Shown: piece by piece, positions 6,755 to 23,262 of the stretch
Numbering within the stretch: position 1 is the stretch's first letter
Layout of the letters: each line of letters begins with the position of its first letter
Source: Eledone cirrhosa
Taxonomy: Eukaryota
Length of the DNA: 64,000 nt
Direction: 5' to 3'
Assembly: GCA_964016885.1 (NCBI GenBank)
Contig: OZ024743.1
Coordinates: 75,826,001-75,890,000 of the forward strand
Notes under the pieces: model-generated
Seen by the model: only the letters and a program-made list of their open reading frames with translations
The model's database searches: none
Told to the model about the DNA's origin: nothing
Translations under genes and position numbers: made by a program

Positions 6755-6933
6755 TTACTGAGCATTAGAGGGTCGGACGCCATGCTTTCCAGCATAGTTA
6801 CGTCCCTTTATGTTCTGAGTTCAAATCCCGCCAAGGTTAACTTTGCCTTTCATCCTTACGAGGTCGATAAAATAAAGTACCAGTAATGTACTGCTTAATT
6901 GCTGGCCTTGTGCCAAAAGTAGAAACAATTATT
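6755..6933 (+). mobile_element. tRNA-derived SINE (family B; Deu/Nin-like central core)
   Basis: B box GAGTTCAAATCC, core CTTTGCCTTTCATCCTTACGAGGTCGATAAAATAAAGTACCAG, and 3' end TGGCCTTGTGCCAAAAGTAGAAACAATTATT. Other copies lie at 20918-21018 and 23090-23262. Confidence 0.8.
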
Positions 6934-6959
6934 CCGAAAACATTTGAAAACCAGAATTG

Positions 6960-7125
6960 TAGTTGAATTGTGGCATCAGTAGAACGAAGAATACCTTGAA
7001 TTCATACTTTGCCTTTCACGTTTCTGGGCTCAATAGAGAAAAAGTGTCATGGAATTGAGTTCCCCTACCTATCATCAACAGCTCAAAAGTATATGTGGCC
7101 TTCGGCCTATGCTAGAAATTATAAT
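6960..7125 (+). mobile_element. Older diverged family-B-like SINE
   Basis: ACTTTGCCTTTCACGTTTCTGGGCTCAATAG core and GGCCTTCGGCC...AGAAATTATAAT 3' end. Confidence 0.55.
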
Positions 7126-7305
7126 GTAAAAACGTTTAGACAGTAAAGAGTTATATGTTTACCTTGTGTAGAGGTTTCCGGTTTACATGTTTCCGTGGCA
7201 ATTAACCAGGAATAAAATCTCTTTTATATTGTAATCGTTCTTCTTCTTTGTTTTTCCTCCTTTTCAGGTCGATAAAAAAACAATCACTCCAGTATTGATG
7301 TCAAT

Positions 7306-7700
7306 TCTTCTTCTTCTTCTTCTTCTTCTTCTTCTCTCTCTCTCTCTCTCTCTCTCTCTCATTATCTTTTCCCCACTCTCTCTCTCTCTCTCATTATCCC
7401 CCCTCTCTCTCTTTCCCACTCTCTCTCTTTCTCATTATCTCTTTTCCATTCTCTCTCTTTCACATTTTCTTTCTCGCCTTCTCTTTCTGTTTCCCATTTC
7501 TCTCTCTCCCACTCTCTCTTTCTCTCTCGTTTCCTTTCTCCCCCCTCTCTCTCTCTTTCCATTTTCTTCCAACTACTCTCTCTTTCACATTTTCTCTCTC
7601 ACTCTCTCTTTCGTTTCCTTTCTCCCCCCTCTCTCTTTCCCTTTTCCTCTCCTCCACTCTCTCTTCGCGCTTTCCTCTTTTCTCTCTCTCTCACACTTCC
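7306..7700. repeat. (CTT)n/(CT)n polypyrimidine tract with an internal duplication
   Basis: Seen directly. TCTCGTTTCCTTTCTCCCCCCTCTCTCT occurs twice. Confidence 0.85.
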
Positions 7701-7942
7701 TCTTTATCCAGGTTTAAAAAAAAAAATCTCCAAGAGATGTGGTGTCCCTACGACTCCAGCAACAGTTAAGTGTCCTTACAAACATGATTGTTGTTATTTT
7801 TGATACTTTATTAATACAGCGTTCTGAAATACAAATTATAGCTGTTGTTGTTATTGCTTAGCCGCAGGTCAGTTCTGACCTAGCTGATCTATTCTTAAGT
7901 CGATATATAAATTTGAGCGACTTCCATTCGTCCGTCACACAA

Positions 7943-8360
7943 TGTGTGTGTGTGTGTGTGTGTGTGTGTGTGTGTGTGTGTGTGTGTGTGCGAATGTATG
8001 TGTGTGTAAAAGGAAGTAAGCGAATGGTGAAATAACTATAGCATAACAGCGGCTGGCGTTCAATTTGCTACGCTGTGTGTGAGGGCATGTGTGTGTGTGT
8101 TTGTGTAAATGTATGATTGTGTGTGTGTGCGTGTGCGTGTGTGAATGTATGTGTGTGTAAAAGAAAGTAAGCGGACGGTGAAATAACTATAGCATAACAG
8201 CGGCTGGCGTTCAATTTGCTACGCTGTGTGTGAGAGCATGTGTGTGTGTGTGTTTGTGTAAATGCATGCGTGTGTAAAAGGAAGGAAGCGGATGGTGAAA
8301 TAACTATAGCAAAACAGTAGCTGGCGTTCCATTTGTTACGCTGTGTGTGAGTGTATGTGT
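7943..8360. repeat. Three copies of a ~75-bp unit (AAAGGAAGTAAGCGAATGGTGAAATAACTATAGC...CTACGCTGTGTGTGAG) separated by (GT)n
   Basis: Copies at about 8008, 8159 and 8276. Confidence 0.85.
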
Positions 8361-8460
8361 AAATGTATGTCTGTGAGTGTGTATTTTTGTAAGTGTGTCT
8401 GTGTTTGCCCGTTTATATTTATATACTCATTTTAATGGCTGTAAGTTGAGATAGATGCGT

Positions 8461-8795
8461 CTACTACTACTGCTAATGCTACTACTACTATTACTACTAC
8501 TACTACTACTACTACTACTACTACTACTACTAATAATAATACTCTAACTACTACTGCTGCTACTACTACTACTACTACTACTACTACTACTACTACTACT
8601 ACTACTACTGCTGCTGTTACTACTACTACTACTACTACTACTACTACTACTACAACTACAACTACTACTACTACTGCTGCTGCTGCTGCTACTACTACTA
8701 CTACTACTACTACTACTACTACTACTACTACTACTACTGCTGCTGCTGCTACTACTACTACTACTACTACTACTACTACTAATAATAATAATAAT
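8461..8795. repeat. (TAC/TGC)n microsatellite ending in (AAT)5; left half of the insertion site
   Basis: AATAATAATAATAAT at 8781-8795 abuts the element 3' end. Confidence 0.95.
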
Positions 8796-9048
8796 GATTT
8801 CATTTATTGGCCACAAGGGCCGACATATAGGGGACAACACAATAGACAGGGACAGTGGGGGTTTACATAGAGATCGAGTAAGTATAAATAACAAAAAAAC
8901 AAAATAACAATAAAAATACAACAATGAAAGTTCCCCAATAAGAGGGATCACCACCCAGGGTTGACTCAAGCACCCCACCAGTCCTGAGCCACCCGACGCT
9001 CCTAGGGCACCCGGGAAGGGCACCCCTCTCCTTCTCGAATTCACCAGC

Positions 9049-21018: not shown

Positions 21019-21029
21019 TCAGCAGATTA

Positions 21030-21670
21030 CTCGATGCAGAATACATTGCTCTGGAGAACGGCGAGGGAGACGCACTGGAACATCAGCCACTCCATCTCGC
21101 AGGTCTCACATCAGCAGGCAGCCGACTCCACTCCGACAGCAGTGAGTAGGGATGTGGTCCAGGGGCCAAGAACGCCACATGTCTCCATTGCAACAGGCTC
21201 GCACCTGCAGGTAGCCAACTCTGCTCTAATATTAGTGAGTAGGGATGTGGTCCAGGGGCCAAGAACGCCACATGTCTCCATTGCAACAGGCTCGCACCTG
21301 CAGGTAGCCAACTCTGCTCTAATATTAGTGAGTAGGGATGTGGTCCAGGCGCCAAGAACGCCACATGTCTCCATTGCAACAGGCTCGCACCTGCAGGTAG
21401 CCAACTCTGCTCTAATATTAGTGAGTAGGGATGTGGTCCAGGGGCCAAGAACGCCACATGTCTCCATTGCAACAGGCTCGCACCTGCAGGTAGCCAACTC
21501 TGCTCTAATATTAGTGAGTAGGGATGTGGTCCAGGGGCCAAGAACGCCACATGTCTCCATTGCAACAGGCTCTTTTACAAACCTATCTGATAGTGGTCGA
21601 TACTTGGACAGTTTTCCCTCTATGCTGAGCAGTATAGCATGGGCTGGTGTCCGAACGCACCAGGTTCCCA
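21030..21670 (-). mobile_element. 3' fragment of an RLE-encoding (CRE-like) non-LTR retrotransposon with internal tandem amplification
   Basis: Minus strand reads KLSKYRPL..EPVAMETCGVLGP and later MEWLMFQCVSLAVLQSNVFCI. These match CRE-type restriction-like endonuclease motifs (KY..L, PxAxETxGxxG, LxQRxSxAxxRGN). Confidence 0.65.
21142..21571. repeat. 93-bp tandem repeat, about 4.6 near-identical copies
   Basis: GTGAGTAGGGATG at 21142, 21235, 21328, 21421 and 21514. Confidence 0.95.
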
Positions 21671-21836
21671 ATTGAGTAAGTGTCACAGCAAAAATAAACA
21701 TATACTTAGTCTCATCATAAAAATATAAACTACAAATGTTTTGATATCTAAAAGCGAGGATTAGATTAACTAGTTTCAGGGTAATTAATCCTCGACGAAT
21801 TTTATGAAATATAAAAGTTATTGCATTGATCTAAAC

Positions 21837-21940
21837 CAGAGGTGGAGAACCTTTTCATGTTAAAAGGCCACATTACGTTTCCCCGGGGAAACACCTTCTC
21901 CATTGTGTCCGCCGGGACTGTGGGGAGGCCACAAATATGA
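21837..21940 (+). mobile_element. Possible hAT/Charlie-like terminus
   Basis: CAGAGGTGGAGAACCTTTT...GGCCACA resembles hAT ends. No partner end was found. Confidence 0.3.
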
Positions 21941-22109
21941 TTGACTGACTTGTCATTTTATCAGTCAGATGTTCTAATGATTCTATATATATATATATAT
22001 ATATATATATATATATATATATATATATATTAGAAAATGAGTTTTTTTTTTCCAAAATGAAAAAAATCGGGATGTCCTACACGAGTGTAGGAAAAAACTA
22101 TATGGAAAA

Positions 22110-22360
22110 AAGATGAAATCAAAAATAAGCTGATGTCTTTTTAAGAGTATTTATTTGGTTCCTTTACCGGTTTCGCAGTTCTTGTGCTTTTCAAAAGTAG
22201 AATTGAGATGGAGGGTTTGTGGTTTTTCTTGCATCTGGTTGGTGTCCGAATGTTACTTTTGTTTTATGTGGAAAAAAGTGGCTCTTTAGAAAAGTAATTA
22301 GGTTGGTTAATGACTGTCACGTATAATAAATTTCGCGCCAGTTCGCTTTACAAAGTTCTT
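22110..22360 (-). mobile_element. Penelope-like terminal repeat fragment (copy 1) with hammerhead-like motif
   Basis: Reverse-complement homology to 23305-23585. The motif is at 22161-22197. Confidence 0.55.
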
Positions 22361-22759
22361 ATTATATTTGTCTTTAAAAAAAGGGGTGGGGGTGGGGGTG
22401 GGGGTTCAGGTTGTTTTTTCATATATGTGTGAAATTTAGTTATATATATATATATATATATATATATATATATATATATAATTAGGCATGTATAACTTGG
22501 TATTATTTACCATGCTTTCGGTAGCTATTTTGCTTCAAACGCTAGCAGACATCCGGGATATGATAGCTGGAAAGAGAGAGGACTGCATCAGCAGTAAGGT
22601 GGGACCTTTTAGTTACTTTTAACCATAATTACATATTATTAAAATCATCTATATATTCTTTGACAGACGATTGACTTTCGTCAAATCGAACCGAGGAAAC
22701 AATGTTTCCATTGGTCTTTCCAATTGCTAATACTATCTATCGGTTGCAACTCCAGGTAG

Positions 22760-22882
22760 AAGGAGCAACGTGAAATATAGTGTCTTGCTCAAGGACATAA
22801 TGCATCACCCGGTCCAGGAATCGAACTCACAACCTCAAGATTACGTATACAATTCTCTAACCATTCAGCCTCACGCCTTCAC
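22760..22882 (-). mobile_element. tRNA-derived SINE (family A), 5' part
   Basis: Homologous to 6400-6520, with B box GAGTTCGATTCC. Confidence 0.75.
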
Positions 22883-23089
22883 TATATATATTCTTAAAAA
22901 AGTGGGAATTTAATATCTGTTCTAGAATCACAGAAGTAAAACATGAGAGTAGAAAGAGCTGAAATGATCCCTATGATTTACTAATGTTTTAATTCTGGCT
23001 GACGGAGTGGATTATTTCGTTGAATGTTCTTTGACTTTTTGGGATTTAAAATAGGTTCATCTTATGGTTTAAATTGAATAATAAATTAA

Positions 23090-23262
23090 AATAATTGTTT
23101 CTACTTTTGGCACAAGGCCAGCAATTATCCCAGTGTATTACTGGCATTTTATTTTATCGACCCCATAAGGATGAAAGGCAAAGTTAACCTCGGCGGGATT
23201 TGAACTCATACCATAAATGAACGTAACTCTTTGCTGCAAAGCATGGTGTCTGACGCTCTACC
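23090..23262 (-). mobile_element. Family-B SINE
   Basis: Reverse complement of 6755-6933, including B box, core and 3' stem-loop. Confidence 0.8.

Follow-up and report, generated by a model that had tools for sequence, protein, structure and literature searches.

Two long interspersed nuclear elements (LINEs) of L1/Tx1 type and three copies of an abundant short interspersed nuclear element (SINE), here called family B, lie close together in a 64,000-nucleotide stretch of the Eledone cirrhosa genome (G000:C4:75,826,001-75,890,000, in a 3.0-Gb assembly; hereafter the window). LINEs and SINE end in similar small hairpins, which raises the question whether the SINE is copied by the machinery of this LINE lineage. 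The last ∼22 bases and the ATTAT insertion site are common to the SINE and the Tx1-type lineage, and the SINE therefore likely borrows its copying machinery. From the genome sequence, a LINE-SINE partnership in which family B is mobilized by the L1/Tx1 lineage is very probable. The original prediction had proposed such a partnership, and it is now supported by a tail match specific to L1/Tx1, a shared ATTAT target with duplications, a 16-nt register and the finding of no better partner among the sampled clades.

Elements of the window

All elements relevant to this question are located before position 26,349, where a satellite begins. Open reading frames (ORFs), untranslated regions (UTRs) and domains, including apurinic/apyrimidinic endonuclease (APE) and reverse transcriptase (RT), are given where present.

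14591..20424, minus strand: full-length L1/Tx1-type LINE, copy 2 (5′UTR, ORF1, ORF2, 3′UTR)
8796..14575, minus strand: full-length L1/Tx1-type LINE, copy 1, directly downstream of the (ATT)n tail of copy 2
18299..20209, minus strand: ORF1 of copy 2, ATG at 20209, CX2CX4HX4C knuckle in the sequence, no Pfam match
14850..18302, minus strand: ORF2 of copy 2, 1150 amino acids (aa) stop to stop, with APE endonuclease, RT and zf-RVT
9049..12501, minus strand: ORF2 of copy 1, 1150 aa
14604..14616, minus strand: terminal hairpin of copy 2, GGCC-CTTGT-GGCC, followed by AATAAA and GAAATC
8809..8821, minus strand: terminal hairpin of copy 1, GGCC-CTTGT-GGCC
14576..14590, minus strand: (ATT)n tail of copy 2, target of copy 1
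20446..20560, minus strand: 5′-truncated remnant, bordered by (ATT)n at either end, from the abundant AACC/GGTT Tx1 family; hairpin at 20458-20470 (AACT-CTTGT-GGTT)
421..910, minus strand: 5′-truncated element from the Tx1 branch that targets (ATCT)n, with GATA repeats on either side; hairpin at 435-445 (GCC-CCTGT-GGC)
6766..6927, plus strand: family-B SINE copy, 5′-truncated, hairpin at 6903-6915 (TGGC-CTTGT-GCCA), ATTAT next
20919..21012, plus strand: family-B SINE copy, 3′ half, hairpin at 20989-21001
23096..23263, minus strand: family-B SINE copy, hairpin at 23108-23120
8461..8795, no strand: (TAC)n/(AAT)n microsatellite on the 3′ side of the LINE array; matching (TAC)n on the 5′ side at 20586-20809

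Copies 1 and 2 are arranged in tandem, head to tail on the minus strand, with 16 mismatches over 5,781 aligned bases (99.7% identical), and are preceded by the sister-family remnant. ORF1 with a CCHC knuckle and the 1150-aa ORF2 with APE, RT and zf-RVT domains are present in both copies. Both end in GGCC-CTTGT-GGCC-AATAAATGAAATC-(ATT)n. All seven ends previously read from this DNA (full LINEs, remnant, GATA-site element and SINEs) were found in place.

Shared 3′ ends

Tails were compared end-anchored over 24 positions and evaluated with dinucleotide shuffles, using three SINE forms as queries. These matched eight L1/Tx1 families at 14-18 of 24 positions (24 comparisons, p 0.0005-0.011); agreement with five ends from CR1, RTE-X and Dong was 6-11 positions (15 comparisons, p ≥ 0.11). 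Two LINE families found later matched the SINE tail at 9-12 of 24 positions (p 0.08-0.60). As a positive control, the other abundant SINE, family A, matched RTE-X at 24/24 and no Tx1 family. The SINE and the LINE lineage thus have a 3′-terminal sequence in common, as stringent pairs do, which is significant only when end-anchored. In one locus (L140), a family-A copy carries a tail identical to that of an RTE-X-like LINE over at least 30 nt; in the window, family A is located at about 6330-6520 and 22760-22880 (minus).

Genome-wide, the end motif CYTGTG-N3-AATAAAGAAA gave 14,966 and 14,516 matches (29,482), versus 9 and 0 for the reversed control, and ORF2 sequence was present in 26 of 30 loci fetched from these matches. 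A CYTGT loop with at least three pairs, taken alone, occurred 17 times in window positions 1-26400, 10 times outside element ends; it is the whole end motif, not the bare hairpin, that exceeds chance. When the 3′UTRs of six Tx1 families were aligned, the last 24 columns were 81% identical, versus 13-67% elsewhere. SINE subfamilies differ in the sequence of the 7-nt spacer but not in its length, nor in the 11-nt hairpin or GAAA. The spacing to GAAA had been described as conserved; this holds for the SINE and most Tx1 families, but in the full LINEs of the window stem and GAAA are one base further apart. Nothing more on stems or ends came from the contigs of runs X1 and X5.

Insertion site, duplications and register

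For the junction counts, LINE copies that reached the reference end, were below 85% identity or had rearranged junctions were left out. ATTAT was present within the 5′ flank of 65/114 SINE copies and 16/24 ATT-tailed Tx1 copies, compared with 1/23 for CR1, 0/5 for RTE-X and 0/11 for ATCT-tailed Tx1 (background 4.7%). Fisher tests against CR1 gave 1e-6 for the SINE and 8e-6 for ATT-tailed Tx1. Flanks of the ATCT-tailed copies contained TATCT in 9 of 11 cases, with junctions in GATA repeats, so that the lineage has a target preference in this branch as well.

Duplications of at least 8 nt were found in 58/114 SINE, 8/24 ATT-tailed and 7/11 ATCT-tailed Tx1 copies, and in none of the CR1 (0/23) or RTE-X (0/5) copies. 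Those of the SINE measured 8-20 bp and began with ATTAT in 49 of 58 cases; the three SINE copies of the window have duplications of just 0-5 nt. In a first pass of the insertion test, 58/105 SINE copies were positive versus 31/300 mismatched flanks. The distance from loop to ATTAT was 16 nt in 179 of 244 SINE tails and 16 or 17 nt in 71 of 105 Tx1 tails. Target preference, duplications and register are thus observed alongside the sequence match, and the target signature points to the ATT branch independently of the hairpin. CR1 also ends in (ATT)n without the Tx1-type signature; therefore, the repeat tail alone seems insufficient.

Several observations weigh against the partnership or the way in which it was read. 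The common stretch is short (∼22 nt), and AATAAA accounts for six of its conserved bases at the terminus. By sequence, the families nearest to the SINE tail belong to the ATCT branch (17-18/24), yet the target of the SINE is ATT. When 53.6 kb of LINE sequence was scanned unanchored, 3′ ends scored 28-30, not clearly above the null mean of about 26, and for two of three SINE queries the best match (23/29) was a 5′UTR hairpin of one ATT-branch family. A SINE-type stem combined with AATAAA had five matches in the genome, all of them mutated SINEs and none a LINE. About half of the SINE copies carry no duplication of 8 nt or more. Finally, the Tx1 and CR1 junction sets counted above are small, were selected in part by pattern and include two Tx1 rows that represent tandem duplicates.

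Predicted hairpin and compensatory stem changes

In a consensus of 11 family representatives, the stem consists of three pairs: one invariant, one swapped in the SINE and one swapped in the AACC family. Pair 2 changed from C-G to G-C (SINE) and pair 3 from G-C to A-U (AACC family). The three SINE rows count as one event, which leaves two independent compensatory changes. The older SINE form (T-GGC-CTTGT-GCC-T) and one LINE family (T-GCC-CTTGT-GGC-T) differ only in the swapped pair. The fourth pair is unpaired in 7/11 representatives, and among the SINE copies T.T stands at this place in 48/122 of the short form and 38/46 of the long form. The proposed covariation of the stems thus amounts to two changes within 3 bp, which makes the case for the hairpin weaker than had been suggested; the fourth pair is often broken. 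AACT in the remnant had been taken for a further covarying stem; this is a private change in a family that reads AACC and therefore not covariation.

The predicted structure outscored all slid controls. In most multi-copy Tx1 families the hairpin had a predicted probability of 0.7-0.98 (0.4-0.6 in one family), often stacked on a longer U-rich/AAAGAA stem. It was weakly predicted in three single-copy Tx1 variants, and in the full-length RNA of 101 SINE copies the median probability was 0.06, with only 16 copies exceeding 0.5. In SINE RNA the hairpin is plausible rather than established.

These folding results bear on the first alternative, which keeps the same partner but dispenses with hairpin recognition: the ORF2 protein (ORF2p) would read a linear motif (CUUGUG...GAAA) or need only pairing of AUUAU with the target, and the hairpin would be a by-product of descent. 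The rarity of the predicted hairpin in full SINE RNA suits this explanation, as does a stem of 3 bp with just two covariation events and a fourth pair that is not kept. Against it, both stem changes are double and keep the pairing, predicted hairpin probabilities are high for most of the multi-copy Tx1 families, and CR1 RNA with its (AUU)n tail shows no Tx1 signature. We consider recognition without the hairpin unlikely. Given the partnership, hairpin-dependent recognition would be the probable mode.

Alternative partners

The true partner might be an unsampled LINE with a longer match, e.g., an L2, a Nimb or another Tx1 family that is rare or extinct, and the likeness to the present Tx1 ends would then be indirect or due to chance. 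About 1.4 Mb of the 3.0 Gb was examined. Moreover, in the available part of a bivalve study the partners of SINEs are CR1, CR1-Zenon, L2 and Nimb, and the pairs share 35-61 bp at 72-95%, longer than here (PMC11481361). The tails themselves argue otherwise. The 221 SINE-type tails in the examined loci included no LINE 3′ end; a SINE body was missing from 13, among them three cases of the 5′UTR hairpin mentioned above. Where the upstream pattern was not that of the SINE (n = 30), a SINE body was nonetheless present in 24, and the other 6 look like truncated SINEs. Translated searches, none of them aimed at L2 or Nimb, gave only Tx1, CR1, RTE and Dong-like families, and no better partner was found among the clades sampled. 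With the target signature independently indicating the ATT branch of Tx1, an unsampled partner is quite improbable.

A young, intact CR1-like LINE with its own stem-loop and (ATT)n end was also considered as the mobilizing element. It has 11,066 exact tails and intact 945-aa frames, and CR1 is a common SINE partner in molluscs according to the available part of PMC4824008. However, its tail matches the SINE at 8-10/24 only, not significantly, and its ATTAT flanks (1/23) and long duplications (0/23) differ from those of the SINE (65/114 and 58/114). The junction data largely refute this explanation, which we regard as very improbable.

Equally remote is an origin of the SINE tail from the 5′UTR hairpin of the ATT-branch family (or capture of the SINE tail by that family), with the 3′-end likeness secondary: for two queries, 0/120 and 2/120 shuffles equalled the 23/29 match, but the third query was not significant there, position, register and function suit a 3′ end, and the homologous hairpin of sister families has a different loop, so that convergence in one family is plausible. 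This hairpin lies ∼35 nt before the ORF1 start (L416: G000 C1 16,300,700-16,307,100; L417, L284, L363, L379); its homolog with the other loop is found in the window at 20265-20285 (minus).

Three further LINEs were tried as partner and rejected. RTE-X tails end in (TGA)n and match family A. Dong/R4 carries an (AAT)n tail in the opposite sense, without a tail match. The third is a rare CR1-like family with a GGCC-rich tail (L435-L450, 16 copies), which ends in a 10-nt repeated unit and sits in (TA)n; its end match was not significant, one local score among nine reaching p 0.03. Dong/R4-like elements with (AAT)n tails were also seen tail to tail with Tx1 copies, sharing their microsatellite but on the opposite strand (L146, L012, L016, L018, L023, L289, L302).

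The L1/Tx1-type lineage

ORF2 of the window LINEs matched PF03372, PF00078 and PF13966 above cut-off, which together with the two-ORF layout places the elements in the L1 clade in the broad sense. Compared with solved structures, human L1 ORF2p scored best (201 bits over residues 14-864) and R2 proteins scored at most 82 bits, in a database (PDB) that holds few LINE clades. The nearest named ORF2 relatives were from Argonauta (69%) and a cuttlefish (53%). In an RT tree built from family members, unnamed relatives and one Argonauta protein, with no named Tx1 reference, the Tx1-type families and the Argonauta protein formed one clade (100/100) and the ATCT families a subclade (97/92). We infer membership of Tx1 in the narrow sense from target preference.

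ATT-tailed families have the stems GGCC/GGCC, AACC/GGTT and AGCC/GGCC, and ATCT-tailed families TGCC/GGCT, CGCC/GGCT and TGCC/GGCA, followed by (ATT)n and (ATCT)n tails, respectively. Decayed ATT-tailed relatives are also present in the genome. In 40 random stretches of 10 kb, L1/Tx1 was the commonest LINE type (12 stretches), followed by RTE-X-like (7), CR1-like (3) and Dong-like (1) elements; 14 ORF2 ends from random stretches comprised 11 with the end motif, 2 with a decayed form and 1 cut short. Distant L1-clade relatives from metagenomes (23-37% identity) had the end motif in none of the 30 usable loci among 80 fetched, and the motif is therefore lineage-specific; most of these relatives terminate in AATAAA and A-rich sequence.

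Twenty long stretches were fetched for the 5′ junctions of the window family. All 12 copies reaching the 5′ end were preceded by (ATT)n, which included tails of other Tx1 copies, of CR1 and of the SINE. The LINE families thus use (ATT)n or (ATCT)n repeats, and also one another's tails, as insertion sites, and tandem arrays such as that of the window result. In full-length Tx1 copies (L348, L349, L344) the 5′ junction holds a surplus of ATT repeats for which the 3′ flank cannot account, which suggests that Tx1 RNA starts with (AUU)n pairing with the target. Most Tx1 families carry another conserved hairpin (CCCC-CTATT-GGGGA type) 120-170 nt upstream of their 3′ terminus, seen in the window at about 14720-14745 and at about 8920-8945 (minus); it shows a CCTC/GAGG double change in one family and is absent from the SINE.

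The family-B SINE

Family B is a non-coding element of ∼190 nt with A- and B-box-like head motifs read by eye (B box GTTCAAATC). In length, head, duplications and high copy number it corresponds to a transfer RNA (tRNA)-derived SINE; ARAGORN and Rfam called no tRNA on it. Rfam otherwise gave microsatellite noise and a sub-threshold tRNA match on family A. Exact family-B tails numbered 119,219 and 120,538, i.e., at least 239,757 genome-wide (control 0), and family B is the most abundant short repeat among those examined in the genome. Short and long forms differ by ∼30 nt upstream of the tail. Identity with MetaSINEs, which carry a 66-bp Meta domain behind the head, was rejected: the family-B body is unlike the BivaMeta and BivaMD alignments by eye, the core words being missing from that alignment file. 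Family B may be of Deu/Nin type, a SINE type with a Nin-DC central domain.

Two side observations concern its tail. A 37-bp tandem repeat is built from it at G000:C1:126,428,886-126,429,318 (12 units listed). SINE tails also adjoin Tx1 3′ fragments of very small size, and in one case a Tx1 tail runs into the final 28 nt of a SINE (L035:1390-1460, L295, L279, L293, L032, L385); template switching could account for these junctions, as could insertion into ATTAT tails.

Timing

Short-form SINE copies (n = 122) diverged by a median of 4.5% from the column majority, and those of the older long form (n = 46) by 13.5%. Divergence was 0.0% for the window family and 1.7-2.5% for sister Tx1 families, whose ages derive from pattern-selected copies and are therefore biased young. 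As 17 of 122 short-form copies diverge by 2% or less, the ages of SINE and Tx1 families overlap. The LINE lineage spans the activity of the SINE, and the window family itself came late. The suggestion that the element type seen in the window mobilizes the SINE is accordingly supported for the lineage; the window family is too young for most SINE copies to have been their main driver, and most mobilization is therefore assigned to older sister families of the ATT branch.

Other repeats of the window

The remainder of the window, from 26349 to 64000, is occupied by a 28-bp satellite (∼1,350 copies, 90% matches). Minisatellites have units of 93 bp (21141-21572), about 41 bp (3696-4254) and 20 bp (1-332).

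Comparison with known systems

The following comparisons refer to the available parts of the cited papers. Shared tails are standard for partners of the L2, CR1 and RTE clades (PMC4176376). The eel UnaL2/UnaSINE1 pair and zebrafish ZfL2 resemble the present pair in a shared 3′ end, a small stem-loop followed by short tandem repeats, and a tRNA-type SINE head; unlike those stringent pairs, the partner here is of the L1 clade, ∼22 nt are shared, the stem is 3 bp and binding is a prediction (PMC4176376).

Mammalian L1 had been set against the proposed stringent recognition. This contrast is not unprecedented, since stringent L1-clade elements have been described in plants and a green alga. A survey of the L1 clade reports three SINEs with shared tails, in maize and the green alga (PMC3472496, PMC3747384). 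Monocot LINE1-1_ZM with ZmSINE2/3 and Chlamydomonas L1-1_CR with SINEX-3_CR are, as proposed here, L1-clade elements with a conserved terminal hairpin, compensatory stem changes and a tail-sharing SINE; these plant and algal pairs share about 50-80 nt, whereas the present lineage is animal and has microsatellite target specificity (PMC3472496, PMC3747384).

For the crocodilian SINEU/Tx1-Mar system, a Tx1 partner was likewise deduced from shared target preference and overlapping ages (PMC4494074). SINEU elements have small nuclear RNA heads and poly(A) tails, and that study found no LINE similar to the 3′ half of SINEU-1, while tail homology and target agree here (PMC4494074). Kibi (TC)n, Koshi (TTC)n and crocodilian (TTCC)n/(TTTC)n Tx1 families are APE-type L1/Tx1 elements in simple repeats, as here; the present targets, (ATT)n and (ATCT)n, are different (PMC4494074).

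Octopus genomes with tRNA-Deu and tRNA-CORE SINEs resemble the present genome in having two dominant SINE types and active L1-Tx1, CR1, RTE and Dong-R4 elements (PMC8967140, PMC13282606). The available parts of these papers give L1-Tx1 and abundant SINEs and name no partner LINE. The literature searched contained no report of a structured tail common to a SINE and an animal L1/Tx1 element; Repbase and Dfam entries were outside this search, and a prior database note is possible.

Proposed mechanism and implications

Target-primed reverse transcription is established for LINEs. In short, the explanation we favor, with fair though not strong confidence, is that the SINE is copied in trans by ORF2p of the (ATT)n branch, which would recognize the predicted 3-bp CUUGU hairpin. 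The APE endonuclease would nick the DNA strand that lies opposite ATTAT, releasing a 3′ end that would pair with AUUAU in the RNA and prime reverse transcription. With ORF2p holding the hairpin and GAAA, priming would occur 16-17 nt downstream of the loop in both RNAs, and insertion would leave a duplication of 8-20 bp. ORF2p binding, priming and stringent recognition are assumed here by analogy with established LINE biology. The SINE may have acquired its end from an old member of the lineage, after which one base pair was swapped (C-G to G-C) and AAUAAA was lost, presumably because an RNA polymerase III transcript would not need it. Older ATT-branch families would have copied most SINE copies.

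More tentatively, and with somewhat less than even confidence, an animal L1/Tx1 lineage may have kept stringent stem-loop-dependent recognition, with the CUUGU hairpin as a ruler for priming 16 nt downstream and with endonuclease target and RNA tail switching together between (ATT)n and (ATCT)n. This lineage, and not RTE or CR1, would then have made the main octopod SINE expansion, and the 5′UTR hairpin of one family may be a second ORF2p site.

A sequence-specific mode is rarely reported for the L1 clade. If the partnership is true, this L1/Tx1 lineage would combine, in an animal, a structured tail shared with a SINE, copies that are young and intact, and a split into two target branches, which would suit it to retrotransposition assays of the standard kind. 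The driver would then also be known for a SINE of at least 240,000 copies, from a group with a much-discussed SINE burst.

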